DNA of 21,103 nucleotides from positions 1 through 21,103 of IMG/VR virus record IMGVR_UViG_2547132281_000013, one strand, 5' to 3'. Of this stretch, positions 3,530 through 21,103 are shown one piece after another. The notes under the pieces were generated by a model that was given only the letters and a program-made list of their open reading frames with translations, had not been told where the DNA came from and did no database searches. The position numbers and the translations under genes were made by a program. Numbering within the stretch: position 1 is the stretch's first letter; each line of letters begins with the position of its first letter. The DNA is from a virus. Taxonomy: Duplodnaviria; Heunggongvirae; Uroviricota; Caudoviricetes.

Positions 3530-3541
3530 GCAGTAATGAAA

Positions 3542-4366: not shown

Positions 4367-4431
4367 AATAAGTCCTCACTATATAAAGATATTCAGTGAT
4401 GAGATAAATAATCAGTTTATTAAGAACGATA

Positions 4432-4794
4432 TTAACGACCTGCTGCGCGGAGTTTTCCGTCAGGTTCACCGGCAAGAGTCAGTAATTGTCCCTGGTCTTC
4501 CTGCAGAATAGTCAGGCGACCACCGCGATCGACATACATTGGCGTTTCGGTGGTGTCTTCTTCGGAAATTTTCCCGCGGTTAGTCGGGCGAACATATGAG
4601 AGTTTGTGTTTGATTTTCACACGGTTCTCATCAAACGGTTCGATTTCCAGATTGAGTGAGACCTTCCCTTTGGTTTTCGTGTTCATCACACCGGAAGCGA
4701 CTTCACTGAGAACTGCGCCGATTTTGGTTTCAAATACGCCGCCGTCCAGCTCCCCGATAAATGCCTGCACATCAGTACTGCGTTCGCTAGCCAT
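4432..4794 (-). CDS. yfdP: YfdP-like prophage protein
   Basis: Within ORF 4432-5112 the coding-like part begins at the internal ATG at 4794 (MASERSTDVQAFIGELDGG..., 120 aa), which has GAGGAG 9 nt upstream. The upstream extension is Arg/Cys-rich and not protein-like. Confidence 0.5.
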   Translation of the reverse strand: MASERSTDVQAFIGELDGGVFETKIGAVLSEVASGVMNTKTKGKVSLNLEIEPFDENRVKIKHKLSYVRPTNRGKISEEDTTETPMYVDRGGRLTILQEDQGQLLTLAGEPDGKLRAAGR

Positions 4795-4930
4795 TTTGCT
4801 GCTCCTCATCATATCGACCCTGCAAGGCCGATTAGTTTCTCCACAAAACAGAGAAGAACACCTGCGGTGGCAGCCGCCCGGATGGATTGGGTTATGAGCC
4901 CGTCGTCCGGTGATGCTCTTCTCTGTTTTG

Positions 4931-4977
4931 TAAAAAGAGCGGTACCAGCCGGAAGCAAGGGTACAAACTGGTACCGC
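4931..4977 (-). terminator. tL-like hairpin followed by a T-run on the minus strand
   Basis: 10-bp perfect inverted repeat GCGGTACCAG / CTGGTACCGC (4939-4948 and 4968-4977) with a 19-nt loop. On the minus transcript it is followed immediately by UCUUUUUA. Confidence 0.35.
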
Positions 4978-5194
4978 CAGGACTACACACAGCATAAAGT
5001 TGTGGTGCCGGGTGCCTCCCGGTGCCTGGCGAAGGTTGCACACCAGACGGGTGGGTATCCACAGAAGGTCGACTGTCAGCCTCAACCTTAACCCGCGTGC
5101 GCTGAGCCGCATTCACCACAACGCTAAGGATTCTCTCTGGTTGAAAATACTTAGCTGTTATGTGCCTGCTTTTAGCCACATCAGGCGAGGTGGA

Positions 5195-5248
5195 CCTGGT
5201 TATTCCCCAACAACAAGGATTCGGTTAATCTGGTTATCCCCAACAACG
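5195..5248 (+). repeat. imperfect direct repeat (CTGGTTAT[T]CCCCAACAAC, two copies) just upstream of ORF 5263
   Basis: Copies at about 5195-5215 and 5230-5248, ending 15 bp before the RBS (AAGGAAAAG) of the 144-aa ORF. Confidence 0.4.
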
Positions 5249-5262
5249 CAAAAGGAAAAGAA

Positions 5263-5697
5263 ATGTCCGGTAATATCTACACGCTGTACAAATCCCACTG
5301 TGAAAATGTTGGAAAGTATCGGGGCATTGAAATCAGTGGGGTAGTGTCATCAGTCGAAATAAGCAGAGTGGAATCAAGGGCAACATTACTTACTCTTCTG
5401 GACCTTGTCTTACATGAGCACCGGAAGAAATTCGGCACTCCCTATAATCAGTTGAATGGGAAAAAGGCTCTGGTTCACCTTATTCTGATGAAGCATCACT
5501 GGATGCCAAAACAGATTAATGAGATGAAATTCGATGAACTTCTTCTTTCAATTCAGGATGAACTCACACTTGATAAAATAAGCGTAACCGCCCAGAAATT
5601 TTTAGATTATCGAGACTGGAGATCACAAATTCATCACTTTGATGATTTTGACGAAAATGAATGGGAGCCTAATTTGTCTGCACAATATCTAAAGTAA
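5263..5697 (+). CDS. hypothetical protein, 144 aa; moron-like gene antisense to the leftward early operon
   Basis: ATG with AAGGAAAAG RBS. No transmembrane segment and no recognised domain. Its 3' end overlaps the convergent small ORF at 5669-5875 by 29 bp. Confidence 0.45.
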   Translation: MSGNIYTLYKSHCENVGKYRGIEISGVVSSVEISRVESRATLLTLLDLVLHEHRKKFGTPYNQLNGKKALVHLILMKHHWMPKQINEMKFDELLLSIQDELTLDKISVTAQKFLDYRDWRSQIHHFDDFDENEWEPNLSAQYLK

Positions 5698-5875
5698 CAT
5701 CCTGTGATAAAACCGTGATTTCCTGATCCAGTTTTTTTAAGGAGTCTATTGTTTCCTGTCGATAAGACAGCACTTCACGAAGCTGGTTTATAGCTGCCAG
5801 CTTCTTTGTCATCCACTCGTAAATTTCCTCATTTGTGTATCCGGGCGCGACGATTTTTGGTTCTTTTTTGTGCAT
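5669..5875 (-). CDS. small hypothetical protein, 68 aa; first gene of the leftward (PL-like) operon
   Basis: The ORF track begins at a TTG, but the likely start is the ATG at 5875 (MHKKEPKIV...), which has GAGGAGG 7 nt upstream. Not Arg-rich, so not an obvious N-type antiterminator. Confidence 0.4.
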   Translation of the reverse strand: MHKKEPKIVAPGYTNEEIYEWMTKKLAAINQLREVLSYRQETIDSLKKLDQEITVLSQDVTLDIVQTN

Positions 5876-5935
5876 TTCACACCTCCTCAAGTTATCAGTT
5901 ACTTGTTGATGGGGACCAGATTGTTAAAGAGCTAA

Positions 5936-5956
5936 GCGCCCGAAAGGGCGTTTTTT
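5936..5956 (+). terminator. putative rho-independent terminator on the plus strand
   Basis: GCGCCC-GAAA-GGGCG followed by TTTTTT. Confidence 0.4.
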
Positions 5957-6025
5957 GTTGCTAACGAATCATCCTGGACTTCATATGCCTCAGGCGGCTA
6001 CTTCGTGGGCGTCCTGCCTGTTCTT

Positions 6026-6062
6026 TGTTTCGTTTGGGTACATTATGTATCTCAAGGGTACA
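6026..6062. promoter_or_regulatory. OL-like operator pair
   Basis: TGTTT-N7-GTACA (6026-6042) and TGTAT-N7-GTACA (6046-6062). The GGGTACATT motif occurs twice. Same half-site family as the cI/cro intergenic operators. Confidence 0.45.
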
Positions 6063-6073
6063 TTGTCAAGTAT

Positions 6074-6096
6074 AAAAAAACCTGCCGAAGCAGGTT
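6074..6096 (-). terminator. rho-independent terminator downstream of the repressor gene
   Basis: Minus-strand stem AACCTGC-TTCG-GCAGGTT followed by a run of seven T; lies 13 bp past the cI stop. Confidence 0.5.
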
Positions 6097-6108
6097 CATA
6101 GACATTGA

Positions 6109-6783
6109 TTAGGCTTTGATTTTGTATCTTCTTGGTTTTCCTGAGAAAATCACTGTACCAATTATAGAGCAATTACCGTTGATCTTAATGTAAGGCTCAG
6201 GCCAATTTGGGTTTAACGCTTTGAGATAACGCTGTGTCCCATCTTCTATCAACCTTTTGAAGGTGGTTTCACCTGTATCGTGCATCAATGCAATAACATC
6301 GTCACCGTGGCAGGCAGGTACTTCAGGATCGACAAAAATCATGTCTCCCGGGCGGTACTCATCAATCATTGAATCACCTATCACCCGCAAGATATAAGTC
6401 ATTTCCCCACAGGGTACAGGGCAGGGATACGTTTCTGCTGTGCTCAAATCAACCTCAGAATATCCAACTTCTTTCCATGCTCCGGCCTGTACCCATGATA
6501 TGACAGGGACTAATGTGATTTGTTTATTAGTGATTGAAACATCAGGTTTTTTTGTGATGTTCGTTGTCTGGTGTTCTTGATCGAGCCATCCGATAGGCAG
6601 GTCGAAACATTTTTCGATGTGTCGTGCCATGCTGTCACCGATATTTTTAGTAGCACCATCTCCCATAAACCTGCTGGTCTGGGTTGGCTCGCGATCAATC
6701 ATAGTGGCAAAGGAAGAATTCCCGCCAACACCATCTCTCAGTTTTCTGGCGTTAGACCGCCGGATGTCATGGATTGTTTTCAT
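6109..6783 (-). CDS. cI: CI-like prophage repressor (N-terminal HTH, C-terminal S24 LexA-type autopeptidase)
   Basis: 224 aa. The C-terminal domain carries the S24 catalytic Ser (RVIGDSM) and a downstream Lys (TTFKRL). Divergent from a Cro-like gene across an operator-bearing intergenic region. Confidence 0.85.
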   Translation of the reverse strand: MKTIHDIRRSNARKLRDGVGGNSSFATMIDREPTQTSRFMGDGATKNIGDSMARHIEKCFDLPIGWLDQEHQTTNITKKPDVSITNKQITLVPVISWVQAGAWKEVGYSEVDLSTAETYPCPVPCGEMTYILRVIGDSMIDEYRPGDMIFVDPEVPACHGDDVIALMHDTGETTFKRLIEDGTQRYLKALNPNWPEPYIKINGNCSIIGTVIFSGKPRRYKIKA

Positions 6784-6873
6784 AACGAAATTAAAACCCT
6801 TGTACCGTTAAGGTACAAGTGTCTTGAAGGTTCATTTCAATCATGTAATATGTACACCGGAGGTACATATTGT
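6784..6873. promoter_or_regulatory. divergent immunity control region (OR/PR/PRM-like)
   Basis: Two dyad operators TGTAC-N7-GTACA at 6801-6817 (within the 21-bp palindrome CTTGTACCGTTAAGGTACAAG) and 6851-6867. Candidate rightward promoter: -35 TTGAAG (6824-6829), 16-bp spacer, -10 TAATAT (6846-6851). The second operator overlaps the -10 and the start site. Confidence 0.55.
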
Positions 6874-7074
6874 ATGAAAGCGTATTGGGACTCTTTAACC
6901 AAAGAACAGCAGGGCGAGTTGGCCGGAAAAGTTGGCTCAACACCTGGCTACTTACGGCTGGTTTTCAATGGCTATAAAAAAGCCAGTTTTGTGCTGGCTA
7001 AAAAACTTGAGCAATGCACGTCAGGTGCAATTACGAAATCTGACTTAAGACCGGATATCTATCCGAAAGATTAG
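6874..7074 (+). CDS. cro: Cro-like HTH regulator
   Basis: 66 aa from the ATG at 6874, with GGAGG 10 nt upstream. The longer ORF-track frame (6571-) runs antisense into cI and is rejected. Confidence 0.6.
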   Translation: MKAYWDSLTKEQQGELAGKVGSTPGYLRLVFNGYKKASFVLAKKLEQCTSGAITKSDLRPDIYPKD

Positions 7075-7105
7075 CAGAACACCTTCAATTTTTAACCACA
7101 GAACG

Positions 7106-7672
7106 ATGAGGCTAACCGTGGGTAAGCATCACTGGAAAATAGAAAAACAGCCTGAGTGGTACGTGAAAGCTGTCAGAAAAACTATCGCAGCGTTGCCGGG
7201 GGGTTACGCTGAAGCAGCTGACTGGCTGGATGTAACAGAGAACGCATTATTTAACCGCCTTCGTGCCGATGGCGATCAGATTTTCCCGCTGGGATGGGCA
7301 ATGATTTTGCAACGTGCTGGTGGAACTCACTTCATTGCTGACGCTGTGGCGCAGTCTGCAAATGGCGTCTTTGTGTCTCTTCCTGATGTCGAGGATGTGG
7401 ACAACGCCGATATCAACCAACGCCTGCTGGAGGTCATTGAACAGATCGGCAGTTATTCAAAACAGATTCGTTCAGCAATTGAAGACGGTGTAGTGGAACC
7501 GCATGAGAAGACAGCAATTAACGACGAGCTGTACCTCTCAATTTCGAAGCTGCAGGAGCATGCAGCACTGGTCTACAAAATTTTTAGTACATTCAAGAGA
7601 AGTAATGACGCCCGCGAGTGTGCAGCTCCGGGCGCCGTGGCGTGTCGTGACTGTGGAGAAACTAACGCATGA
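7106..7672 (+). CDS. YmfL-like putative early regulator (CII-position gene)
   Basis: 188 aa, immediately downstream of cro. Length and position match e14 ymfL from memory. An alternative GTG start at 7121 has a better SD. Confidence 0.45.
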
Positions 7673-8007
7673 ACAGTTTAACAACACACTACCGTCGCTC
7701 GCAACTGATTGCGCTTCCTGTACCGGGTGGAAAAGCGAAGGTGGAGTATTGCTATGCAGTAAATGTACCAGGTGGCAGGGTAATTGTAACCCACAGCTTT
7801 GCAGAGTGGGCTGTGGGTGATTTTAACCGGCAAAAGGAGACAGTCCTTTGCGACAAGTTAACCGCTGGTTCAAAGATCACTACGGAGTACCCGTCAGAGT
7901 CATTCGTTGGGAGCCGGAAACACAACGGGTTATCTACCTCCGCGAAGGCTATGAGCATGAATGCTTCAGTCCGCTCGAACAGTTTCGTCGTAAATTCAGG
8001 GAAATAG
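7669..8007 (+). CDS. YmfM-like hypothetical protein, 112 aa
   Basis: ATGA start/stop coupling with the preceding gene. The 3' half overlaps an alternative-frame ORF that has a stronger RBS (next feature). Confidence 0.35.
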
Positions 8008-8027
8008 AGGTCGGTCATGAGCACTAA
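7848..8027 (+). CDS. small DUF4222-like protein, 59 aa, TTG start, in an alternative frame
   Basis: AAGGAG at 7833-7838, 9 nt upstream of TTG 7848. Product [58 protein letters not shown] is protein-like and recalled as resembling DUF4222 prophage proteins. Confidence 0.4.
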
Positions 8028-8292
8028 ATTAACCGGCTATGTATGGGATGGTTGCGCTGCATCAGGCATGAAGTTATCCAGCGTGGCAATTATGGCACGC
8101 CTGGCTGATTTCAGTAATGACGAAGGTGTGTGCTGGCCATCAATTGAAACCATTGCCCGTCAGATTGGCGCGGGGATGAGTACCGTCAGAACGGCTATCG
8201 CACGGCTGGAAGCAGAAGGCTGGTTAACGCGTAAGGCGCGTCGCCAGGGTAGAGACAACAAAAGGAGCCTGGGATGTACAGCAGACTGTTAA
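8017..8292 (+). pseudogene. N-terminal fragment of a phage replication-initiation (O-like, HTH) protein
   Basis: The first ~77 aa ([78 protein letters not shown]) look like a replication-protein N-terminus. The frame then runs into unrelated sequence and stops at 91 aa, where full-length proteins are much longer. Confidence 0.5.
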
Positions 8293-8492
8293 TCATCTAC
8301 CTGATGACGATGTTGACCGTGAGTTGCGCGAAAACTTTACCCGCAAAACCTGAAGTAACGGACACGGCCTGTGACTGGGTAAGAATCATCTACCTCACAG
8401 GTCAGGACATTGAAGTGCTGGATAAGCTTACGAAGCGGGATATTCTGGCACATAACAAAGCAGTACAGCGCAACTGTATTAGCCAGTTATGA
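8274..8492 (+). CDS. small putative exported protein or lipoprotein (possibly Rz1/o-spanin-like)
   Basis: AAGGAG 7 nt upstream of the ATG. Hydrophobic N-terminus ending in a near-lipobox (LTVSC). Position is upstream of the packaging genes. Confidence 0.3.
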   Translation: MYSRLLIIYLMTMLTVSCAKTLPAKPEVTDTACDWVRIIYLTGQDIEVLDKLTKRDILAHNKAVQRNCISQL

Positions 8493-8534
8493 GGCAAACG
8501 AGATTGCGGGCAATTATCGCCCGCAATAAAGTTA

Positions 8535-8798
8535 TCAATTATCTCCTTTAAAGGAGTCGTATTCACCCCAATCAGCAAACCCAATCGGTCTTTTAGGGGT
8601 CTCTAAGCATAAGCGTTTTTTTCGGATTAGCAGGACATTTATTTGAGATACATGCTGAACAAGTTCTACAGGACTGCCATCCTCCAGAGTACCAATGAAA
8701 GAAATTAATGATGGATTCCAGTAGCTTATGTCTGTGAAATGAAATTCAATGTTTTTACCAAAGCTAGCTAGTTGTCCTCCTACCTCATACTCTTCTTC
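8535..8798 (-). pseudogene. 3' portion of a small ORF interrupted by the IS66-family element
   Basis: Continues the frame of 11506-11631 once the IS and one copy of the target duplication are removed (...EEEYEVGGQLASFGKNIEFHF...GEYDSFKGDN). Confidence 0.5.
8791..8798. repeat. 8-bp target-site duplication TCTTCTTC (left copy)
   Basis: Identical 8-mer abuts both ends of the IS66-family element. Confidence 0.8.
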
Positions 8799-8828
8799 GT
8801 AAGCGACTCGTCAGAACCGTATTGATAT

Positions 8829-10400
8829 TTACTGAGAGCTCAGATCAACTTTCCAGGGCAACAGATCGCGTACCCGGTTTGCCGGCCAGTCCTGGATATG
8901 TTCAATGACGTAACGCAGCCACTTTTCTGGCTCCACATTGTTCAGACGGCATGTGCCGATCAGCGAGTACAACACCGCCGCATGTTCACCACCGCTGTCG
9001 GAACCCGCGAACATCCAGTTTTTCCGGCCTACGGCCACTCCCCGTAAGGCGTTCTCTGCGATGTTGTTGTCGATTTCCACCCAGCCATTACTGCAGTACA
9101 CGTTCAGTGCATCCCACTGTTTCAGCAGGTATGCGAACGCTTTTGCCGTATCTGAGTGACGCGACAGTGTTTTCATCTGTTGCTGTATCCAGTCATACAG
9201 TGACTGCATCAGTGGCGCGGCTCTGGCTTTTCTTGCCGCCAGACGCTGTTCTGCTGAACAGCCCCGGACCTCTGCCTCGATGGCATACAGTTCACCGATA
9301 CGCTGCAGGGCTTCCGTGGTGATGTCGGTGGGCGCTCTTGCATGCACATCGTGGATTTTTCTCCGGGCATGAGCCATACACGCGGCTTCCGTTATTCTGC
9401 CGGATTCGTATAACGCCCGGTAACCACCGTAAGCATCGGCCTGAAGCACACCGCTGTAACCGGCCAGGTGATTTTGTGGATGGATACCTTTCCGGTCCGG
9501 ACTGTACGCGAACCAGACCGCCGGGGGCATCTGTGAACCGGCGTTACGGTCATCACGGACGTAGACCCACAGCCGGGCTGTCCGGGTTTTACCGCTGCCC
9601 GGCTCCTGGACCGGGACGGGGATATCATCAGCATGGACTTTACCGGGCATCAGCACATACTGGCGCAGGACGTCATACAGCGGCTCCAGCAGTTCAGCAA
9701 CAGCACCTGTCCAGCGCCCCAGTGTGGCACGGCTCAGCTCCACTCCCTGACGACGGTATATTTCTGACTGGCGGTATAACGGCAGATGGTCTGCATATTT
9801 CCCGGTGACAACATGGGCCAGAAGCCCCGCTCCGGCATAACTGCGTGCAATGGGTTTTGAAGGTACTGGTGCCTGCACGATATGGTCGCACCGGCAACAG
9901 GCCTGTTTCGGACGTTGTGTTTCGATAACCTTAAAGGCGCTGCTGATAAGCTCCAGTTGCTCTGACACATCACATCCCAGAGAACTGAGTTCACCACCAC
10001 AGGCAGGACAGCATTCCTCTTCCGGCCGGATAACCCGGGTTTCACGGGGAAGTGAGGCCGGTAACGGTTTACGGGCTGAAGACTGGCGCAGGGCGGATGG
10101 CAGTACCGGGTCATATTGCTCACCCAGCGTTTCCGCCATTTCTTCCTGAAGTGCGCTGATTCGCTCCTGTGCTTCCTGTATCTGCCGTTCGGTTTTTGCA
10201 CGAAGTTTTTCTGAGCTTTTACCGAACTGCATGCGCTGCAGTTTCGCAACCAGCGCCTTCAGCCGGTTGATTTCGGAAGCATAAGCCGCCACCCGCTGTG
10301 AGAGCAGGCGGTTGTATTCAGCCATCTGGCGGATGGTGTCCTGTTGCGTCTGCAACAGTGCCCGCAGGCGGGCGTTCTCATGAGCAAGTGAGGTGTCCAT
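8829..10400 (-). CDS. tnpC: IS66-family transposase TnpC
   Basis: 523 aa with an N-terminal coiled-coil/leucine-zipper region, a CxxC...C zinc-finger-like motif (CCPACGGEL...) and a DDE-type core. Confidence 0.85.
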
Positions 10401-10419
10401 ATCCTCACTTTACAACGGG

Positions 10420-10767
10420 TTATATGCGGATTCCAGCGCGTTCCGTTCGTTTCGGGTGCTTCCAGTTGATACCTTCAAGAAGCATGGATAACTGAGCCGG
10501 AGTAAGGTGCACCTTGCCGTCACGGGTGACTGGCCAGACGAAGCGGCCCCGCTCCAGGCGTTTGGTGAAGAGGCACAGTCCGTCACTGTCAGCCCACAAC
10601 ACTTTTATCTGGTCACCCCGGCGTCCGCGGAAGATGAACAGGTGTCCGGAGAACGGGTCATCCTTCAGGACGTTCTGAACTTTTGATGCCAGGCCGTTAA
10701 AGCCATTTCGCATATCGGTGATACCTGCAACCAGCCAGATACGCGAACCTGCAGGGAGAGATATCAT
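10420..10767 (-). CDS. tnpB: IS66-family accessory protein TnpB
   Basis: 115 aa, typical IS66 Orf2 (LWADSDGLCLFTKRLERGRFVWP), translationally coupled to tnpA. Confidence 0.8.
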   Translation of the reverse strand: MISLPAGSRIWLVAGITDMRNGFNGLASKVQNVLKDDPFSGHLFIFRGRRGDQIKVLWADSDGLCLFTKRLERGRFVWPVTRDGKVHLTPAQLSMLLEGINWKHPKRTERAGIRI

Positions 10768-11444
10768 CAGTGGCTGCTCCCTTTTATTTCGCGGATAAGT
10801 GTCTGTAATAACGCCGGCGTCAGTTTACCTTTAAGCCTGAGAGTTCCGGCCGGCAGAACCAGCTCACAACACAGACTGTCGGACGGTGTATTTATCTGCT
10901 CTGGTTCCTGTGCGGGGGCCGGGATTTTATTATCCGGCTCCGGCGTTAACGTCACGGGAAGCAGTGCCGGCATATTTTTTCCGGAAGGCAGCAGGCCACC
11001 TTTCCGGTATTGATGGCGCCAGTTGAAGAGCAGGTTATCGTTGATTCCGTTTTCCCGGGCGATCTGCGCCACACAGGCTCCGGGCTGCAGTGACTGCTCC
11101 ACTAAGGCGATTTTAAACTCATAAGGGAAGTTGGGCCGCCGGGGACGTTTTTTTACCACGGGGGCTTCGGATATAACGGTGCTTTCAGGACGTACGACTG
11201 GTACCGTGGAAAATTGTCCGTAAAGGCAGGCATCAAGTTCCTGCTCCGACATGCCTGCGGGCAAAGGCCACGAAAGGCCAGCTCTCCGAAAGCGCACGAA
11301 CATACTACAAACTGTTGATTTTGGTACACCCAGGCGACGCCCGGCCACAACCCGGGGTAAATGTTCTTCAAAGTGAAGACGTAAAGCTTCAGTGATCCAG
11401 GTCCGGTGTTTCATACGATAGTGTCCATTAAAAATGATGGACAT
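10767..11444 (-). CDS. tnpA: IS66-family accessory protein TnpA (HTH), with an N-terminal extension
   Basis: The C-terminal part carries the IS66 OrfA HTH (PRRPNFPYEFKIALVEQSLQPGACVAQIARENGINDNLLFNWRHQYRKG). Start is uncertain between the ATGs at 11444 and 11414. Confidence 0.7.
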   Translation of the reverse strand: MSIIFNGHYRMKHRTWITEALRLHFEEHLPRVVAGRRLGVPKSTVCSMFVRFRRAGLSWPLPAGMSEQELDACLYGQFSTVPVVRPESTVISEAPVVKKRPRRPNFPYEFKIALVEQSLQPGACVAQIARENGINDNLLFNWRHQYRKGGLLPSGKNMPALLPVTLTPEPDNKIPAPAQEPEQINTPSDSLCCELVLPAGTLRLKGKLTPALLQTLIREIKGSSH

Positions 11445-11497
11445 TATTTTTGTAGAGCCGGAGGAAACAGACCAGACGGTTTAAATGAGCCGGTTAC

Positions 11498-11505
11498 TCT
11501 TCTTC
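11498..11505. repeat. 8-bp target-site duplication TCTTCTTC (right copy)
   Basis: Identical to 8791-8798. Confidence 0.8.
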
Positions 11506-11631
11506 AAGTTCACGGTGAAAATCATTTATCCAGCATATAAGGCGTCTATGAAATTCATTTGCAAGATTGTAGTCCTTTGGAACATATGGCTGTGAGTATT
11601 TGAGGAAATCATTCATGTAGTTATTTGTCAT
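11506..11631 (-). pseudogene. 5' portion of the small ORF interrupted by the IS66-family element
   Basis: ATG at 11631 with AAGGA about 8 nt upstream (MTNNYMNDFLKYSQPYVPKDYNLANEFHRRLICWINDFHRELEE...). The frame runs into the target duplication and the IS end. Confidence 0.5.
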
Positions 11632-11729
11632 CAGGGCGTCCTTTACGAGCATAACCATTGTTACTTAACGGATTGAAACGCTATTAAATAACATGGTTTC
11701 TATCATAATTTCTATCCGGAGTTTTCCAT

Positions 11730-12080
11730 ATGCCGCCACGAATCCCAAAAGCCTGCCGTGTTCGCGGCTGTCGTTCTACCACTACAGATCCGTCAGGCTA
11801 CTGCGAAAATCATAAAGGTGAGGGCTGGAAATCCTACAAGCCAGGTCAATCACGGCAGCAGCGCGGATATGGAACAAAGTGGGAAGTCATCCGGGAGCGG
11901 ATACTAAAGCGCGACAAAGGGTTATGTCAGAACCATCTTCGGCAGGGAGTTGTGAAGCAAGCGTCCTGCGTGGATCACCTCAAGGCGAAGGCTCACGGCG
12001 GCACTGATGAAGACAGCAACCTTGAGAGTCTGTGCTGGTCGTGTCACGCAGTGAAGACCGCGCGTGAGCGGTTCAGGTGA
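11730..12080 (+). CDS. phage-associated HNH endonuclease
   Basis: 116 aa with the HNH signature (CVDHLKAKAHGGTDEDSNLESLCWSCH) and N-terminal Cys pairs. GGAG 8 nt upstream. Sits next to the terminase genes, as is common in cos-type packaging modules. Confidence 0.8.
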   Translation: MPPRIPKACRVRGCRSTTTDPSGYCENHKGEGWKSYKPGQSRQQRGYGTKWEVIRERILKRDKGLCQNHLRQGVVKQASCVDHLKAKAHGGTDEDSNLESLCWSCHAVKTARERFR

Positions 12081-12197
12081 GAATTGATGTCATCATCAGC
12101 CAGGGGAGGGGGAGGTCGAATCTTTGCAACCGCGCGCCTTCCGGACTGCTCGCCCCATCGTTTTTTTATACCCGCGAAAAATGAAATTTAACCAGGA

Positions 12198-12701
12198 GTG
12201 CCGCATATGGCTGGAACGGCGGGGCGTTCCGGGCGTCGCCCCAAGCCAACGGCGCGCAAGGCGCTGGCCGGAAACCCCGGCAAGCGAGCCCTGAATAAAG
12301 ATGAACCTGTTTTTACGCCCATCAAAGGTGTTGAGCCACCGGAGTGGTTCGCTGAAGAAGATCTCCCTCTCGCCACGATCATGTGGCAACTGACAACTAA
12401 AGAACTCTGCGGTCAGGGCCTGCTGTGCGTGACTGACCTCGCAGTGCTTGAGCGGTGGTGTGTGGCCTATGAGTTCTGGCGACGTGCCGTGAAAAATATT
12501 GCCAGACAGGGCAACACCATCACCGGTGCAATGGGCGGTATGGTCAAAAATCCGGAGCTGACCGCCAAAAAAGAACAGGAGTCCGAGATGAGCAGTACGG
12601 GGGCAATGCTCGGACTCGACCCCAGCAGCCGCCAGCGTCTAATTGGCCTGGCGGGGAAGAAGAAAGCCACTAACCCGTTTCTGAAAATCATCGAATCATG
12701 A
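12198..12701 (+). CDS. terminase small subunit (P27-family-like)
   Basis: [21 protein letters not shown] motif. The likely start is the ATG at 12207, which has AGGAG 8 nt upstream; the ORF-track start at 12198 is a GTG. Stop overlaps the terL start (ATGA). Confidence 0.75.
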
Positions 12702-13561
12702 GCCGGAAATCTTACCCCAACGTAAATGCTGCCAATCAGTATGCCCGTGATGTCGTGCGCGGAAAGATTGTGGCCTGCCAGTTTGTGATTCAGGCCTGCC
12801 AGCGGCATCTTGATGACCTGATGGCGGAAAAAAGTAAGTCGTTTCGTTACCGCTTCGACAAGGACCTGGCTGAACGGGCCGCTAAATTTATTCAGCTGTT
12901 GCCGCACACCAAGGGTGAGTGGGCATTTAAGAGGATGCCCATCACGCTGGAGCTGTGGCAGCTCTTTGTGATCTGCTGCGCGTTTGGCTGGGTCAATAAA
13001 GGCTCCCGGCTGCGCCGCTTCCGTGAGGTGTATACCGAAATCCCCCGTAAGAACGGCAAATCGGCAATCTCTGCCGGTGTCGCCCTGTATTGTTTTGCCT
13101 GTGATAACGAGTTCGGCGCGGAAGTGTATTCCGGTGCCACGACGGAGAAACAGGCATGGGAAGTCTTTCGTCCGGCAAGACTGATGTGTAAACGCACACC
13201 CATGCTAACGGAAGCGTTCGGGATTGAGGTTAACGCCTCAAACATGAACCGTCCGGAGGATGGTGCGCGTTTTGAACCGCTGATCGGTAACCCCGGTGAT
13301 GGTTCATCACCCCACTGTGCGGTGGTGGATGAATATCACGAGCACGCCACCGATGCGCTTTACACCACGATGCTTACCGGGATGGGGGCGCGACGTCAGC
13401 CACTGATGTGGGCCATTACTACTGCCGGGTACAACATTGAGGGGCCGTGCTACGACAAGCGGCGGGAAGTTATCGAGATGCTCAACGGGTCGGTACCTGG
13501 CCTGCGGTACAGAATGACCGTTACGGCTCCCGACTGTGGCTGCTTCAGCGCAGCAAACTGA
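12698..13561 (+). pseudogene. terminase large subunit, N-terminal ATPase portion only (truncated)
   Basis: Walker A-like GKS (PRKNGKSA) and Walker B-like VVDEYHE are present. The frame stops at 287 aa after a non-conserved tail, and no nuclease domain follows. Confidence 0.65.
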
Positions 13562-13770
13562 CCAATCAGCTGGTGCAGACGGTAAGGGGGTATATCCGCG
13601 AATGCCTGCAATGGATGATTGATGACGGCGTGGTGTCCCGTATTGATCTGGATATCCGCCGCACCGGGATTAATGAACTGGGTAACAGTATCACTCTCTG
13701 GCGTCGTGACGGACCGGTAATGATTTCTTTTGATGATCTGTGGAGTGCGATAACGCATGGCGGACAGTGA
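13562..13770 (+). pseudogene. start-less C-terminal remnant of the gene preceding baseplate J (possibly gpW/gp25-like)
   Basis: Protein-like frame (...IRECLQWMIDDGVVSRIDLDIRRTGINELGNSITLWRRDGPVMISFDDLW...) ending in overlap with the baseplate J start. No credible start or RBS after the terL stop. Confidence 0.25.
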
Positions 13771-14815
13771 ATTTCAGCGCCCGACGCTGGCAGAAAATAT
13801 CAGTATGCTCCGTAACGATTTATTCGCCAGGCTGGACGTCAGCGACACGCTCCGGCGCATGGATGAAGACGTGCGGGCAAAGGTGTATGCGGCGGCGCTG
13901 CATACGGTTTACGGTTACATCGATTATCTGGCAATGAACATGCTGCCTGACCTGTGCGATGAGTCCTGGCTGGCGCGACATGCTGCGATGAAACGGTGTC
14001 CGCGCAAGGGAGCCACGGCTGCCAGTGGGTATATGCGCTGGGAAGGTGTCAGCGATGGCCTGAAGGTGACCGCCGGGAGTGTTATTCAGCGCGATGACCT
14101 GGTGCAGTACACGACAACTGACGATGCAACCAGCTCCGGTGGTGTCCTGCGCGTGCCGATCGCCTGCTCAAGTGCAGGTGCGGTCGGTAACGCTGACGAC
14201 GGTACGGCATTAATCCTGGTCACGCCGGTGAATGGTCTGCCGTCTTCCGGTGTGGCTGACACCCTGACAGGCGGATTTGATACTGAAGAGCTGGAAACGT
14301 GGCGCGCCCGCGTCATTGAGCGGTATTACTGGACGCCGCAGGGCGGGGCTGACGGGGACTATGTTGTCTGGGCTAAAGAAGTGCCCGGCATTACCCGCGC
14401 ATGGACATACCGACACTGGATGGGAACGGGGACTGTCGGTGTGATGATTGCCAGCAGCGACCTGATTAACCCCATTCCGGAAGAATCAACGGAAACGGCG
14501 GCAAGACAACACATTGAGCCACTGGCCCCGGTGGCAGGCTCTGATTTGTATGTATTCAGGCCGGTGGCGCACAAAGTGGATTTTCATATCCGCGTGACTC
14601 CGGACACACCGGAAATACGGGATGCCATCACCGCGGAGTTGCGTTCATTCCTGCTGCGTGATGGTTATCCGCAGGGAGAGCTGAAGGTATCGCGTATCAG
14701 TGAAGCGATTTCCGGTGCGAACGGGGAATACAGCCATCAGTTGCTTGCTCCGGCGGACAATATCTCCATTGCAAAAAATGAACTGGCGGTTCTGGGGACG
14801 ATTTCATGGACGTGA
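13757..14815 (+). CDS. baseplate assembly protein J-like (P2 gpJ family)
   Basis: 352 aa. Position immediately upstream of a gpI-like and tail-fibre gene with overlapping start/stop, and overall similarity to the e14 jayE-type protein. Confidence 0.75.
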
Positions 14816-15390
14816 CAAACGATGATTACATCCGTCTGTTGTCGGCACTGTTGCCCCCTGGTCCGGCGTGGTCAGCCAGCGATCCGGCGATTGCCGGTGC
14901 GGCACCGTCATTAACCCGTGCTCATCAGCGTGCGGATGCCCTGATGCGGGAGCTGGATCCGCGCACCACCACCGAACTGATAAACCGCTGGGAGCGTCTG
15001 TGCGGCCTGCCGGATGAATGTATTCCGGCAGGGACGCAGACCCTTCGCCAGCGTCAGCAACGGCTGGATGCGAAGGTTAACCTGGCGGGCGGCATCAATG
15101 AGGATTTTTACCTTGCGCAGCTTGCTGCCCTGGGCAGACCAGATGCCACCATCACGCGATACGACAAAAGCACGTTCACCTGCTCATCGGCCTGTACTGA
15201 CGCGGTGAATGCGCCGGAATGGCGGTATTACTGGCAGGTCAATATGCCAGCTGCCACCAACACCACCTGGATGACATGTGGCGATCCCTGCGATTCCGCA
15301 CTGCGTATCTGGGGGGACACCGTTATCGAGTGCGTGCTTAACAAACTCTGCCCGTCGCATACCTACGTAATTTTTAAATATCCGGAGTAA
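14806..15390 (+). CDS. P2 gpI-like tail protein (YmfQ-like)
   Basis: 194 aa, overlapping the gpJ-like stop. Conserved N-terminal LLPPGPAW motif. Length matches e14 YmfQ from memory. Confidence 0.7.
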
Positions 15391-15393
15391 TCC

Positions 15394-16320
15394 ATGCATC
15401 GTATAGACACGAAAACCGCGCAAAAGGATAAGTTCGGCGCGGGTAAGAACGGTTTTACCCGTGGTAACCCCCAGACAGGCACGCCTGCCACCGATCTGGA
15501 TGATGACTACTTTGACATGTTGCAGGAAGAGCTCTGCAGCGTGGTGGAGGCATCCGGTGCCAGCCTGGAGAAGGGGCGGCATGACCAGCTGCTTACCGCG
15601 CTTCGTGCGCTGCTGTTAAGTCGCAAAAATCCGTTTGGCGATATCAAATCGGACGGCACGGTGAAAACGGCTCTTCAAAACCTTGGTTTGGGAGATACAA
15701 GCGGATACGTGGGACGCCGGCTGAGTACCTGGGCTTTCGCGTCATCAGGTACGTATACCCCATCACTAGAAACAAAACGGATCAGGGTCACAATAACGGG
15801 CGGCGGTGGCGGAGGGGGGGGCTGCCAGGCTATATCCAGTAACGAAACGTTTTTCGGTGCTGGCGGTGGGGCCGGAGGGACAGTAATCACCATACTGACC
15901 CCGACACAGAATAGTTATCCTGTCACTATCGGCGCAGGTGGGGCCGGCGGCGTTGGTGCGACGAACGGCCTCAAGGGCGGTGATAGCTCGTTCGGATCGG
16001 TAATAGCCCCTGGTGGTGAAGGCGGCGGAAAATCAGGAGTCACAAACACAAACGGCGGTAACGGAGGCGTACCGAATATTGGCGATATCCGCATCACTGG
16101 TGGAGATGGAGGCGACGGTCAGTCCGGGAATATCGGCGTCAGCGGTGAAGGCGGTGCATCGTACTGGGGAGGCGGTGGACGCGCAGGCTCTGGCGGTGGC
16201 GTTAGAGGCAGGGCATTTGGTTCAGGCGGAGGTGGTGCATACGATGCAGGTTATAGCGGAACCAGTATGACGGGCGGGAAAGGTGCTGCTGGGGTTTGTA
16301 TTATCGAGGAGTTTGCATAA
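15394..16320 (+). CDS. side tail fibre protein (constant N-terminus plus Gly-rich variable C-terminus)
   Basis: N-terminus [47 protein letters not shown]... is the conserved Mu/e14-type fibre N-terminal region. The C-terminus is made of GGxGG repeats. The gene crosses the invertible-segment boundary at 15683-15684. Confidence 0.8.
15671..15696. other. Din-family (gix/hix/pix-like) recombination site, left boundary of the invertible segment
   Basis: CTCTTCAAAACC-TT-GGTTTGGGAGAT is an imperfect 26-bp dyad resembling hix/gix, and is an inverted copy of the site at 17503-17528. Confidence 0.6.
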
Positions 16321-16730
16321 TGAATGCGTCATATGCAGTTATTGAAAATGGGATGGTTGTGAATGTCATTGTCTGGGATGGCGAGGATGAATTCACTGTG
16401 CCGGATAATCTGCAGCTCATTAATATTTCTGATATCAGTGAGCAGCCCGGAATCGGCTGGGCGTATTCAGACGGGATATTTACTGCGCCGCTCCCTCCGG
16501 AACGTTCTCATGATGAACTGGTAGCTGACGCTGAACAGAAAAAACAGTCGCTGATAGACGCAGCAATGGCCAATATCAGCGTGATTCAGTTAAAGCTGCA
16601 GGCCGGGCGCAAACTGACGCAAGAAGAAACTACCAGACTTAACGTTGTGCTGGATTACATTGACGCGGTGACAGCAACTGATACCAGCACCGCGCCAGAT
16701 GTCATCTGGCCTGAACTGCCGGAGGCGTAG
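16320..16730 (+). CDS. tfa: tail fibre assembly protein
   Basis: Start ATG overlaps the stf stop (TAATG), with GAGGAG 9 nt upstream. C-terminal ...LDYIDAVTATDTSTAPDVIWPELP is the conserved tail-fibre-assembly motif. Confidence 0.8.
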   Translation: MNASYAVIENGMVVNVIVWDGEDEFTVPDNLQLINISDISEQPGIGWAYSDGIFTAPLPPERSHDELVADAEQKKQSLIDAAMANISVIQLKLQAGRKLTQEETTRLNVVLDYIDAVTATDTSTAPDVIWPELPEA

Positions 16731-17142
16731 GCCATTCAATATCTGGCGCACTGGAAGTATCGACCAGCTCCAGTGCGTCCAGATAATCCAGCCACAAATT
16801 ATATTGCGCCAGTTCCTCACCTTTCAGACGACCAATAGCCGCTTTACCAGCCCATTGTTTACTGTTCATATAATCGTTGGCCTGATTAATCAATTGCTGC
16901 TTTTCCAGTTCGGCTGCAGCAATCTGTTCCTCATGTGTTGGTGGTGGAATTTCAGACCATGCAGGAAAACCATTTTCTCCAGCGATACGGATTTTTCCTT
17001 TCGGCGGTAATCCGGAAAACTCAATATACGCTTGCTCATCAACTTCAACAGCATCATCTGGCCATGAGTCAGCTTGAGTGTAATCCTCTTTCATTTCCAG
17101 TGGATAGAAAGAGTTTGTAGTCGCGGAATATATGTAATTCAT
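16702..17142 (-). CDS. tfa: tail fibre assembly protein, alternative copy
   Basis: 146 aa. C-terminal ...LWLDYLDALELVDTSSAPDIEWPTPP. Its 3' end converges on and overlaps the other tfa. Confidence 0.8.
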   Translation of the reverse strand: MNYIYSATTNSFYPLEMKEDYTQADSWPDDAVEVDEQAYIEFSGLPPKGKIRIAGENGFPAWSEIPPPTHEEQIAAAELEKQQLINQANDYMNSKQWAGKAAIGRLKGEELAQYNLWLDYLDALELVDTSSAPDIEWPTPPAVQAR

Positions 17143-17163
17143 TTTTCACTCCATATAGCTAAA

Positions 17164-17514
17164 TTAACAGCCTAACGCTAAAAATGAAGCGCCGAGACCT
17201 GGAGTACTGGCTCTGGATATAAATTTAACCGGGTCGGAACTAAAAGCTGCGCAGGCAATATAACCAACAGACCCGCTATCTGGTGTGTAGTCTTGTGAGA
17301 CCAAAACACGCAGACATCGGTTTGGAAATGCAATCGGAAAATGGGTTACCACATCCTGTGCAATGCCTGGTGCGCCGATTGAGCCCCACTGAAGAATAAA
17401 ACCAGATGGTAATTTTTGATATCCAGTACCTGAAACAGAAAGCGTGAAGCTACCCATATCAGGTATCTGATTCGTCCCTGTCCCCACATTCCTTTTTGCC
17501 GCTTCTCCCAAACC
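17164..17514 (-). CDS. alternative tail-fibre C-terminal segment, start-less; expressed only after inversion
   Basis: The frame begins exactly at the crossover core (GGT TTG GGA GAA = GLGE...), matching the ...QNLGLGD... junction in stf. The first 14 ORF-track codons (17515-17556) lie outside the segment and are not coding. Confidence 0.6.
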
Positions 17515-17528
17515 AACGTTTATGAAAA
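17503..17528. other. Din-family recombination site, right boundary of the invertible segment
   Basis: TTCTCCCAAACC-AA-CGTTTATGAAAA, about 55 bp upstream of the pin remnant. Shares GGTTTGGGAGA with the left site in inverted orientation. Confidence 0.6.
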
Positions 17529-17582
17529 TGCAGAAATAACAAGCAAATGGCATCATTCCTGCTTTTGTCAGGGAGATCTATC

Positions 17583-17711
17583 ATGCTTATTGGTTATGTA
17601 CGCGTATCAACAAATGACCAGAATACCGATCTACAACGCAATGCGCTGAACTGTGCAGGGTGTGAGCTGATTTTTGAAGACAAGATAAGCGGTACAAAGT
17701 CCGAGACCTAG
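17583..17711 (+). pseudogene. pin: DNA invertase (Pin/Gin/Hin serine recombinase) remnant, N-terminal 42 codons
   Basis: MLIGYVRVSTNDQNTDLQRNALNCAGCELIFEDKISGTKSE matches the conserved N-terminus of Din invertases, including the catalytic Ser in VRVSTNDQ. A stop follows codon 42 and downstream sequence is unrelated. Confidence 0.8.
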
Positions 17712-17748
17712 GGCTGACACTGCTGTTCTTGATGCAAATTAAAGGATT

Positions 17749-17776
17749 TAATAGTGAGTAGCGGCCTTACTAATGT
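17749..17776. terminator. perfect 12-bp stem / 4-nt loop hairpin; candidate bidirectional terminator
   Basis: TAGCGGCCTTAC-TAAT-GTAAGGCCGCTA with AT-rich flanks on both sides. Lies 31 bp past the stop of the minus-strand DUF262/DUF1524 gene. Confidence 0.5.
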
Positions 17777-17806
17777 AAGGCCGCTATAATCATTTTATTA
17801 ATTGCA

Positions 17807-19696
17807 TTAATCGTGTTTTGGCCATACTTTCAATGCAATTTCCCCCAACTTTTTACCCCGCTCCAGGATTTCATCCTCATCCCATTTATCCTTAACTATA
17901 AGTGGAATGTTCAGTCGTAGATTGGTGTGGACGATGAGAGCATCACGTTTTTTCAGAAATACAGCATTCTGAACAGAACGGTTTACGCTAAGGTTAAGCA
18001 AAGTTAGATTTCCCAACGTAGCTATCGCTTGTTGCCGTTTCCTTACCAGTAGCTGTTCAGGGGTAAGATCGGTTCCAGACAGAACAATTTGGTTCAATAC
18101 CGTAGCATCTGAATTTGTCACCATATGACCATTTTCGAGAGGCCAACAGGAAAACCAACTTTGAGGCATAAGATGATCGATATCGAGATTGGAAAGATTT
18201 GGACCATCAGGCTTCTCTGTCTTCACTTGGCGACAAAGTTCTCTTTCAAGTTCCGTTAACATTGAGCGCATTTTCGGTGCGTCGAGCCTGCCAGGATAAA
18301 GTGGAGCATTGATGCAAGCATTGAGAAATTCTGAGTCACCAGGCCAACGTGAGGCTTCGCCATTTAAGCTATTGAGGATATTACGTAACTCAACACTGGA
18401 AATTTCCGTTTTAGACAAGTGCCGCAATACATTCATAAATACATTGTTGTAATTCTTTGGCGTCAGGCCACATACGGCTCTTCGTACTACGTAGGAGACA
18501 AGATCATTATACATGGCTGCTTTCTCATCATCAGCGATGTTAGCTATCGAAATGAACAAAGCAAGCGGATAAAGTGTCGTCACATCATAGTCTGCGATGC
18601 GATATCCAAAGTGTGAGATGGGGGTTGTGCCAAAACCATCAACCAATTCTTTATATTGTGATGCATATTGTTTGAGGCGCTTTACTTGCAGATCTGCTCG
18701 TTGTGAAGACAAGTCCTTACTTACATAATCACGATACTCATTGTAAAGGCGAGACAGATCAATTTCACGCTGCCTTTCTGATTGCAATGTCGCATGTACT
18801 AGCCACTCCATGCGTGGTTTATTAATACGTCCACGGCGTTGCTTTTCCGACCAGTATTTATCTTCAAAGCTCTTCCACTCATTTTCATATAATTCAATAG
18901 CATTAATATTTTCATGCTCAGCGCACATAAAGATATAGTTGCGAATAAGATCCGTGGCATGAAGTTCCGCCCCTCGCCCATTTAATGTTTCAAAAATTAT
19001 TTGGGCATCATCTTCAGCTTCGAGAAATATGCTTACCAGTTTCAGATCTGTTAAGACAGCCTCAATTAGAGCTACAGCATTTTCTTGTGGTGAGTGGTTT
19101 TCTATTTTAATCCATTTTATAAAGGCTTCAGTAAAAAAACATAATGCTTCTAGTGATGGCGGGTGATTAAAATGCTTACGCAACGTACCATGCTGCGTGA
19201 AACTATCAGAGAATACGTCCCGGAGATCGTCAATATTTTCAACATTAAAACTTTGAATAAAATGAGTTTGATCCCGAAAAGTTGGCCATAGTTTGAAGCG
19301 TTCTACTTCTTTATTTCGCATTGTGTCTTCGTTTGAGTTTTTCAGGCAAGGCGAAATGAGAGCCTCTAAGCTGAAAAGATCCGTAGCACGTAATGCTAAT
19401 CGGATGGATGCCAGAACATATTGAAGAGTGGTCAATCGTTGCTGACCATCAATAATATGTATGGAATCTACACCTAATAATCCTTTTTTTGATTGAGGTT
19501 CCAGTACAACCGCACCAAGGAAATGGGGAGTTGGTTTTGTACCCGAGAGCCGGGATTGTGCTTTCTCTAGGATATCCTCCAGTAGAGCTGACCATTGGTC
19601 TTGCTGAGTCCATACATAGGCACGTTGATAGAATGGAACACAGTATTGTCGGCGGTCTTGAAAAAGTTGTTGGACAGTTAGCGTCTCGGATTTCAT
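17807..19696 (-). CDS. DUF262/DUF1524 protein, GmrSD-like candidate type IV (modification-dependent) restriction endonuclease
   Basis: N-terminal DUF262 hallmark ...SIHIIDGQQRLTTLQYVLASI... (DGQQR). C-terminal DUF1524-type His-Me finger motifs ...LDIDHLMPQSW... and ...LGNLTLLNLSVNRSVQN.... The likely start is the ATG at 19696 (MKSETLTVQQLF...) with AGGT upstream; the maximal ORF extends to 19756 but has no RBS. Confidence 0.75.
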   Translation of the reverse strand: MKSETLTVQQLFQDRRQYCVPFYQRAYVWTQQDQWSALLEDILEKAQSRLSGTKPTPHFLGAVVLEPQSKKGLLGVDSIHIIDGQQRLTTLQYVLASIRLALRATDLFSLEALISPCLKNSNEDTMRNKEVERFKLWPTFRDQTHFIQSFNVENIDDLRDVFSDSFTQHGTLRKHFNHPPSLEALCFFTEAFIKWIKIENHSPQENAVALIEAVLTDLKLVSIFLEAEDDAQIIFETLNGRGAELHATDLIRNYIFMCAEHENINAIELYENEWKSFEDKYWSEKQRRGRINKPRMEWLVHATLQSERQREIDLSRLYNEYRDYVSKDLSSQRADLQVKRLKQYASQYKELVDGFGTTPISHFGYRIADYDVTTLYPLALFISIANIADDEKAAMYNDLVSYVVRRAVCGLTPKNYNNVFMNVLRHLSKTEISSVELRNILNSLNGEASRWPGDSEFLNACINAPLYPGRLDAPKMRSMLTELERELCRQVKTEKPDGPNLSNLDIDHLMPQSWFSCWPLENGHMVTNSDATVLNQIVLSGTDLTPEQLLVRKRQQAIATLGNLTLLNLSVNRSVQNAVFLKKRDALIVHTNLRLNIPLIVKDKWDEDEILERGKKLGEIALKVWPKHD

Positions 19697-19874
19697 GGTA
19701 TACCTGTAAGCGACATTGTACAAAAGTGAGGAGTTAATCTGATTTAGAACAATCATTTTATTTTGCTATGATACAACGTATTTGTTACCGGTTAAGCAAA
19801 AAACGCGTCTGAACGCTGACGTTTTAGGGCTTTACTGGTTATTCTTTCTTATCTCTTCATCATTGGATTTGCCC

Positions 19875-20780
19875 CTATATTTCCAGACATCTGTTATCAC
19901 TTAACCCATTACAAGCCCGCTGCCGCAGATATTCCCGTGGCGAGCGATAACCCAGCGCACTATGCGGATGCCATTCGTTATAATGCTCGAACGCCTCTGC
20001 AAGGTTCTTTGCTGCCGTTAACCCGTCTGGTTTGGGCATGATACTGATGTAGTCACGCTTTATCGTTTTCACGAAGCTCTCTGCTATTCCGTTACTCTCC
20101 GGACTCCGCACCGCCGTGTTCTTCGGTTCAAGTCCCAACATCCGGGCGAACTGGCGTGTTTCATTAGCCCGGTAGCATGAACCATTATCCGTCAGCCACT
20201 CCACTGGAGACGACGGAAGATCGTTGCCGAAGCGGCGTTCCACCGCTCCCAGCATGACGTCCTGTACTGTTTCACTGTTGAAGCCGCCGGTAGTGACCGC
20301 CCAGTGCAGTGCCTCACGATCACAGCAGTCCAGCGCGAACGTGACACGCAGTCTCTCTCCGTTATCACAGCAGAACTCGAACCCGTCAGAGCACCATCGC
20401 TGATTGCTTTCTTTCACGGCCACTCTGCCTGTATGTGCCCGTTTCGATGGCGGTACAGCAGGTTTTCGCTCAAGCAACAGCGCATTCTGGCGCATGATCC
20501 GGTAAACACGTTTGGCATTGATCGCAGGCATACCATCAAGTTCTGCCTGTCTGCGAAGCAGCGCCCATACCCGACGATAACCATACGTGGGCAGCTCTCC
20601 GATAACATGGTGTATACGGAGAAGCACATCCGTATCATCAGTGTGACGACTGCGGCGGCCATCCATCCAGTCATCGGTTCGTCTGAGAATGACGTGCAAC
20701 TGCGCACGCGACACCCGGAGACAACGGCTGACTAAGCTTACTCCCCATCCCCGGGCAATAAGGGCGCGTGCGCTATCCAC
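19875..20780 (-). CDS. insD: IS2 transposase InsD (OrfB, DDE integrase domain)
   Basis: 301 aa, GTG-initiated frame [28 protein letters not shown]... recalled as IS2 InsD. In vivo it is expressed mainly as an InsCD fusion by -1 frameshifting. Confidence 0.85.
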
Positions 20781-21103
20781 TTTTTTGCCCGTCCATATTC
20801 AACGGCTTCTTTGAGGAGTTCATTTTCCATCGTTTTCTTGCCGAGCAGGCGCTGGAGTTCTTTAATCTGCTTCATGGCGGCAGCAAGTTCAGAGGCAGGA
20901 ACAACCTGTTCTCCGGCGGCGACAGCAGTAAGACTTCCTTCCTGGTATTGCTTACGCCAGAGAAATAACTGGCTGGCTGCTACACCATGTTGCCGGGCAA
21001 CGAGGGAGACCGTCATCCCCGGTTCAAAGCTCTGCTGAACAATTGCGATCTTTTCCTGTGTGGTACGCCGTCTGCGTTTCTCCGGCCCTAAGACATCAAT
21101 CAT
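20738..21103 (-). CDS. insC: IS2 InsC (OrfA, HTH)
   Basis: 121 aa, [56 protein letters not shown].... Confidence 0.85.
20780..20786 (-). promoter_or_regulatory. programmed -1 ribosomal frameshift heptamer A AAA AAG (insC to insD)
   Basis: Minus-strand GCA AAA AAG TGG in the insC frame; a -1 slip reads AAA AAA GTG GAT AGC..., which is the insD frame. Confidence 0.7.

Follow-up and report, generated by a model that had tools for sequence, protein, structure and literature searches.

A pin remnant between a tail-fibre inversion segment and a GmrSD gene in an Escherichia coli prophage

Described inversion switches and how the locus compares

In e14 of E. coli K-12, the pin/P segment/mcrA region runs from a constant fibre part through pixL, two mirror-image pairs of fibre tip and assembly gene, pixR and an intact pin to a co-directional defence gene, mcrA, at the prophage end. 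The Gin/G segment of Mu and the Cin/C segment of P1 share the enzyme family and the switch logic and are intact systems in viable phages; the P1 annotation places the enhancer in the 5' coding region of cin. Din invertases also cross-act, serving a segment from elsewhere in the genome: PinQ, PinR and PinE all invert the e14 segment, Fin acts on the Salmonella H segment and PinE on the Mu G segment, the local invertase being intact and the trans action redundant in these cases (PMC12529663). Prophage Phi4 of EC958 (ST131) carries a severely truncated invertase without HTH domain beside a 3.1-kb segment that retains its 26-bp sites and flips within one culture, both orientations being present, which was ascribed to the invertase of a different prophage working in trans (PMC4134206).

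The defence gene of interest here belongs to the prophage GmrSDs, of which CT596, UTI89_C2960 and Eco94GmrSD are described in PMC4437046. In the passages of that paper used here, these proteins have 629 aa, DUF262 plus DUF1524 and the D507-H508-N522 residues (defined as active-site residues for Eco94GmrSD), prophage gmrSD is placed directly downstream of tail-fibre genes, and modification-dependent cleavage of glucosyl-hmC/hmC DNA is shown for proteins that are close homologues of the one analysed below; the same passages make no mention of a pin remnant or of an invertible segment between the fibre genes and gmrSD.

We analysed a 21,103-nt stretch of DNA (IMG/VR record IMGVR_UViG_2547132281_000013, positions 1 to 21,103; hereafter the window), which has the same gene order as e14. 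It departs from e14 in that pin breaks off after codon 41, with 33 degenerate nt following, in that a convergent GmrSD gene of the same length, domains and catalytic residues as the proteins above serves as defence gene, and in its glycine-rich and gp53-like fibre cassettes. From crossover centre to invertase start the distance is 67 bp in both Mu and the window, although Mu and P1 have kept their invertases. With Phi4 the window shares the truncated invertase and the retained 26-bp sites; Phi4 is nevertheless a different prophage with another crossover-site subtype, and the evidence for the window comes from comparing genomes, its truncation being linked to the GmrSD insertion. Where trans action is redundant in the cross-acting cases, in the window it would be obligatory. 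Our reading, in which we have high confidence, is that a dead PinE-type remnant lies beside an orphan fibre switch that flips only with a Din invertase in trans. Overall this is ordinary prophage decay, an invertase pseudogene by an orphan switch served in trans, for which EC958 Phi4 is the published precedent.

The window is a cryptic E. coli prophage at a tRNA-Pro gene, 99.9-100% identical in parts to APEC O78-like genomes, and no complete genome covers more than 71% of it. Compared over positions 1-15378 with CFIAFB20180540 and APEC O78, it is a decaying remnant without head genes, each of the three having different internal deletions. An IS66-family (ISCro1-like) element at 8799-11494 is a clean insertion with TACTCTTCTTC repeated on both sides and is absent from these two closest complete genomes.

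The pin remnant and its junction with the GmrSD gene

The right part of the window contains the following features:

17583-17711, + strand: pin stump, a pseudogene of 41 PinE-identical codons followed by Thr and TAG
17706-17737, + strand: degenerate pin-derived tail, end of pin homology, with a 1-nt deletion relative to an older junction variant
17758-17787, no strand: hairpin (13 pairs, loop of 4 nt) separating the stump from the convergent GmrSD gene
17807-19696, - strand: GmrSD type IV restriction endonuclease gene, 629 aa, ORF extendable to 19756
19864-21103, - strand: IS2, running off the window end, inserted later and specific to the clade, outside the junction

The stump ORF consists of 42 codons plus the stop, and over residues 1-41 it is 100% identical to the PinE proteins of e14 (K-12) and O157 SS52. 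VRVSTNDQ, which contains the catalytic Ser9, is part of this stretch; the serine motif near the N-terminus is of the YVRVST type (MLIGYVRVSTNDQ). A Pfam search detected the Resolvase N-terminal domain (PF00239) with E = 2.9e-9, covering just positions 2-48 of the 145 in the profile, and found no HTH_7 domain; intact PinE gave positions 2-144 plus HTH_7 in the same search, and the catalytic domain of functional Din invertases has about 140 residues. Using PinE as a tblastn query, we obtained a match for residues 1-44 and none for segments past residue 44 anywhere in the 21-kb window, so that the cognate intact invertase is missing beside the segment and just the 42-codon remnant is there. PGAP labels the same DNA in APEC O78 "recombinase family protein, incomplete, missing C-terminus". 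The first-pass annotation had described a pin-like ORF that keeps the conserved N-terminus with VRVSTNDQ and stops after codon 42; the ORF, the PinE identity and the Pfam and tblastn searches agree with this, and the N-terminal match to Din invertases on which it relied holds over residues 1-41. Judged from its sequence, the stump is a non-functional N-terminal remnant of a PinE-type gene of the Din family of serine invertases, predicted to be unable to catalyse, since the oligomerisation helix, the DNA-binding domain and most of the catalytic domain are gone. The stump-region sequence is 99.8-100% identical in 26 complete genomes, and the stump-GmrSD junction occurs in 287 of the 5,426 complete E. 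coli genomes.

Everything downstream of the stop had been called unrelated to pin, which is right from about 17738 onward but not for the 33 nt after codon 41. These match pinE at 18-20 of 33 positions in a locked register (0 of 100,000 shuffles reached 20 matches), and the next 27 nt match it at chance level. In strains 14EC001 and 1190 the junction has an older, more diverged form, GAGAGCCTAGGG, that keeps the reading frame; the window-type junction is one G shorter, and it is this secondary 1-nt deletion that produces TAG after codon 42. Compared with intact pin loci, both their 3' ends and their flanking DNA, the sequence to the right of the stop gave nothing more than chance matches of 9-12 nt. 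The breakpoint mapping against intact pin loci that had been proposed at the outset thus comes out at about 17737 for the end of pin homology: pin-derived DNA extends to this point, the original truncation is placed near codon 52, and the 42-codon length is secondary.

The stop codons of the stump and the convergent GmrSD gene are 95 bp apart. The perfect 12-bp hairpin reported between them at 17749-17776 exists, although those coordinates are 10 nt too far left: its arms lie at 17759-17770 and 17775-17786, within the 13-pair structure listed above. The folding energy is -26.3 kcal/mol (z = -6.9). On the + strand, the 13 pairs (7 G-C) are followed by AATCATTTTA, as in an intrinsic (Rho-independent) terminator; on the - strand the hairpin folds without a subsequent T-run, the T-rich tail being present on the + strand only. 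Part of the hairpin flank resembles the 3' flank of a GmrSD orthologue outside any pin context. Rfam returned no RNA family, either for the whole window at the gathering threshold or for 17400-17900 at E <= 1.

In the GmrSD gene, DUF262 (GmrS-like) and DUF1524 (GmrD-like, HNH) are fused in a single chain (Pfam GmrSD_N, E = 7.4e-34; GmrSD_C, E = 7.9e-20), PADLOC assigns mREase_IV over the full length with 1418 bits, and the catalytic residues D507/H508/N522 are all present. The protein is identical at 622 of 629 aa to WP_000834402.1, annotated in UPEC129, EC9682, NU14, ATCC 11775 and IHE3034, and the gene has 99.0% DNA identity to that of UTI89. We found it in 305 genomes at 92.5-100% DNA identity, adjoining the stump in every match listed and never an intact pin. 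The junction sequence is common to GmrSD lineages down to 92.5% DNA identity, in prophages located at tRNA-Pro, at ssrA, at icd (the e14 site), near ecp/ykgJ and near pao. Since GmrSD lies by the stump in all the matches listed and one junction is common to these sites, the loss of the pin 3' part and the arrival of GmrSD look like one old event, as the first-pass annotation had supposed in attributing both to the same rearrangement.

To find a possible intermediate in which pin is still intact, we searched 185,579 species genomes for GmrSD relatives. Only three loci came up; the closest (78% aa identity, Enterobacteriaceae bacterium B14) is in a non-pin context, which fits the capture of a mobile defence gene. 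In the phage collection, no record carried the stump-GmrSD junction; the invertases there were all intact.

The further suggestion that IS2 mediated the rearrangement does not stand. Seen from the junction, IS2 lies beyond GmrSD (start at 19864), and it occurs only in the window's clade; most junction genomes have no IS there, among them UPEC129, EC9682, T2, 14EC001, 1190 and Res13. In 50EVA an IS3-family element 95.5% identical to the window's IS2 (locus L007, 9372-10600) lies at a different position, inside the 5' end of gmrSD (window-equivalent 19574-19578), an independent hit on the same neighbourhood.

The tail-fibre segment and its inversion

Upstream of and within the stump, we annotated the elements of the switch as follows:

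15394-16320, + strand: tail-fibre gene as now assembled, 308-aa ORF (Gly_rich_2, E = 4.1e-13)
15671-15696, no strand: pixL, the left 26-bp crossover site, central dinucleotide TT at 15683-15684
15685-17514, no strand: invertible P-segment-like DNA, 1,830 bp between crossover centres
16296-16730, + strand: tail-fibre assembly gene of the currently expressed fibre (Caudo_TAP, E = 8.7e-22)
16702-17142, - strand: alternative assembly gene (yfdK-like), in silent orientation (Caudo_TAP, E = 2.2e-38; yfdK in PGAP)
17164-17514, - strand: alternative fibre C-terminus (gp53-like), promoterless until inversion (Gp53-like_C, E = 4.1e-16)
17503-17528, no strand: pixR, the right crossover site, TTCTCCCAAACCAACGTTTATGAAAA, centre AA at 17515-17516
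17601-17672, no strand: stretch homologous to the recombinational (Fis-dependent) enhancer, nt 19-90 of the invertase frame

The fibre gene joins a constant StfP-like N-terminus at pixL to a glycine-rich variable C-terminus; its counterpart in CFIAFB20180540 (L018) is named stfP, "glycine-rich domain", by PGAP. In 50EVA and T2 it is the gp53-like end that is joined to the constant part. The assembly gene of the glycine-rich tip has a TTG start in the window, and PGAP calls its counterpart partial or with an internal stop in APEC O78, 50EVA, T2 and CFIAFB20180540; going by this annotation, one of the two fibre alternatives may be defective.

The locus has the make-up of a Din-type switch, with two inverted 26-bp sites of compatible TT/AA centres and mirror-image fibre C-termini with one assembly gene each. 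The pixL/pixR inverted repeat is 94% complementary over 18 nt. The pixL motif is the same as in the e14 and O157 loci; pixR is identical to that of e14 in K-12 and lies 67 bp before the stump ATG as a unique match, with 0 expected by chance. The P1 record places the enhancer at nt 19-90 of cin, and the corresponding stretch of the window aligns gap-free, with 56/72 positions identical to cin and 67/72 to K-12 pinE. All of this stretch belongs to the 123 retained nt; its distance from the pixR centre, about 85-155 bp, is comparable to the ~100 bp of the Hin enhancer (PMC3798978), and its predicted enhancer function follows from homology to the P1 annotation. The idea that the cis elements may survive without the enzyme is thereby borne out as far as both 26-bp sites are intact and the stump covers the whole stretch homologous to the P1 enhancer, whose function is a prediction. 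A sigma-70 consensus scan between pixR and the stump ATG returned no promoter-like site, a result of little weight.

We compared six genomes with a stump-bearing prophage at ssrA and found three in orientation A and three in orientation B of an otherwise invariant segment. Stump and GmrSD are the same in NU14 (A) and IHE3034 (B), their flanks are identical over 4,000 + 6,000 nt, and the inversion is the sole difference over 11.9 kb. UPEC129 and EC9682 likewise share prophage, stump and GmrSD; the 1,925-bp segment between their pix centres is an exact reverse complement with 0 mismatches, and their flanks differ at 1/4088 and 1/6316 positions. The bases adjacent to the half-sites are swapped just as exchange at the crossover sites predicts. 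As the flanks of the six genomes are almost invariant, independent flips could not be counted from flank SNPs. With a junction probe requiring the cassette and the GmrSD side, orientation A was found in at most 154 genomes (an upper bound; window-type loci reach exactly 80% coverage) and B in 67; the probe was given a longer right arm, as the shorter-arm version let intact-pin loci reach 82% coverage. The window's own cassette pair is inverted in 50EVA, T2 and ET474. 50EVA shares the tRNA-Pro site, with a right flank 100% identical over 2,075 bp, but window and 50EVA are not isogenic, their segments being 95.6% identical and mosaic. Both orientations are thus observed among stump-bearing relatives.

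These genome comparisons show that clean inversions occurred between otherwise identical stump-bearing prophages, and so, by the same comparisons, after the truncation. The switch had been thought probably frozen unless complemented in trans; the condition appears right, but as a class the switch is, on the NU14/IHE3034 and UPEC129/EC9682 evidence, not frozen. We infer that a trans-acting Din invertase catalysed the inversions using the retained enhancer. A search for such enzymes, suggested earlier, found a pinE-3'-like region in at least 4,478 of 5,426 genomes (4,783 matches to a chimeric query minus at most 305 via GmrSD alone), and none on the chromosomes of the window's two closest relatives. 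APEC O1, PMV-1, ATCC 11775 and MS7163, which include either orientation, gave no second chromosomal match to the pinE 3' probe, so that flips there must be historical or mediated by plasmids or phages.

The window's clade has one orientation only in all 26 genomes (99.8-100% identity). Many of these, APEC O78 for instance, are without pixL and physically locked; in the window, both pix sites and the DNA homologous to the enhancer are retained. We searched 27 chromosomes whose GmrSD probe region is 99.9-100% identical to that of the window, and 14 of these lacked a second hit with the pinE 3' probe; both of the closest relatives, CFIAFB20180540 and EC130, belong to these 14. The window copy is probably a competent substrate that at present stays static, idle unless an invertase arrives.

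Competing explanations, the defence slot and significance

We weighed whether the stump is kept for a purpose. In its fullest form, which we consider unlikely, the first ~120 nt would be retained for the enhancer and perhaps as a terminator-insulated promoter region, switch control would be outsourced to the invertases of other prophages, and the locus would pair GmrSD with a fibre-tip module. If this were true, the module might also act against T-even phages by blocking adsorption, an effect reported for StfE2 of e14 (PMC12529663). The plainer proposal, that the stump has its own function either as a 42-aa peptide or through enhancer selection keeping the segment switchable, we rate as rather improbable. 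It draws on the first 123 nt differing from live pinE by at most 8 codons while the next 33 nt are about 40% diverged, and on a breakpoint just past the enhancer-homologous stretch. Against a peptide, the frame length varies by lineage (the PGAP pseudogene spans 41, 48 or 61 codons) and there are private non-synonymous changes (R7C, at a conserved catalytic-pocket arginine, G4S, N23S and S36G); as a protein, the stump is probably not functional. As to enhancer selection, all copies derive from one event, so the position of the breakpoint yields no statistics, and repeated recombination with live pinE explains the divergence contrast equally well: in UPEC129 the 5' 123 nt of the stump are 100% identical to some live pinE genes.

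Such recombination is also the basis for a reading in which the switch has been frozen since the truncation and the stump-GmrSD module was moved by homologous recombination into prophages of differing orientation. The 5' part of the stump shares synonymous alleles with live pinE genes, and in UPEC129 the 203 nt from pixR to the stump match intact pinE loci at 100% identity, so recombination across the region clearly happens; the mosaic window/50EVA pair points the same way. Even so, we find module transfer very unlikely, as neither the 10 kb of flanks nor, bar the inversion, the 1.9-kb segment differs between NU14 and IHE3034, a pattern for which one inversion is far simpler, and trans-inversion is experimentally established for the family (PMC12529663, PMC4134206).

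Inversion without any invertase, through general (RecA-type) recombination between the short inverted repeats, might seem to account for the genomes of each orientation that are without another chromosomal pinE-3'-like sequence. However, the repeats are identical over a run of just about 15 nt (TTGGTTTGGGAGAAG), and RecA usually needs longer homology to recombine efficiently, which makes general recombination an unlikely cause; moreover, the exchange lies exactly at the 26-bp crossover sites and both states are common, and we regard this explanation as highly improbable. Finally, the prospect raised in the first-pass annotation that TAG is an artefact of sequencing or assembly hiding a full-length invertase can be dismissed outright, since the junction recurs in 287 genomes and 26 independent complete genomes are 99.8-100% identical, with the TAG and the GmrSD stop only 95 bp apart and no other PinE segment found by tblastn in the window.

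We return to the reading of a dead remnant beside an orphan switch. A single old event would have replaced everything past about codon 52 with a convergent GmrSD restriction cassette, landing in the cargo slot that holds mcrA or PD-T4-3 in other prophages of this kind, and a later 1-nt deletion would have given TAG after codon 42. The tail-fibre segment would have been left as an orphan substrate, with pixL intact 1.83 kb upstream and pixR adjacent to the stump, and would flip only when a plasmid, an infecting phage or another prophage in the same cell supplies a Din invertase.

At the prophage end, the position following pin is a hotspot for defence genes, occupied by McrA in e14, by the LEM-3-like GIY-YIG protein PD-T4-3 in O157 SS52 and 98191 and by GmrSD in the window (17807-19696). 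GPT24-02 has GmrSD swapped for an unknown 445-aa protein without Pfam match; stump and hairpin are still there, as are the final ~58 nt of gmrSD. Outside the window, the slot was examined in loci L003 (4751-5584), L004 (4720-5493) and L010 (4197-5534). The ssrA prophages of NU14, IHE3034, APEC O1, UPEC129, EC9682 and ATCC 11775 carry both the stump-linked GmrSD and a PD-T4-3-like GIY-YIG gene ~1 kb past it, about 3 kb right of the stump (L005/L006/L020-L023), with a frameshifted DinI-like pseudogene in between; in APEC O1 the GmrSD gene is itself frameshifted. Strain 1190 has an e14-site (icd/iraM) prophage (L012, 4394-6508) with stump and GmrSD in place of the pin-mcrA of K-12 and with the older in-frame junction variant. 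The apparently intact pinE of strain 98191 (L002, 4107-4661) has T10I right after the catalytic Ser9, a change also present in the stump of strain 1190.

Some 5% of the complete E. coli genomes have the locus, UTI89, NU14, IHE3034, APEC O1 and APEC O78 among them. In these, a well-studied prophage GmrSD gene occupies the site of a former pin gene, and the adjacent fibre switch would now depend on invertases encoded elsewhere. As a natural example of an inversion switch served obligately in trans, the locus would add incrementally to a principle already established. For annotation, it means that differences in fibre genes between otherwise identical strains can stem from inversion and not from gene exchange.
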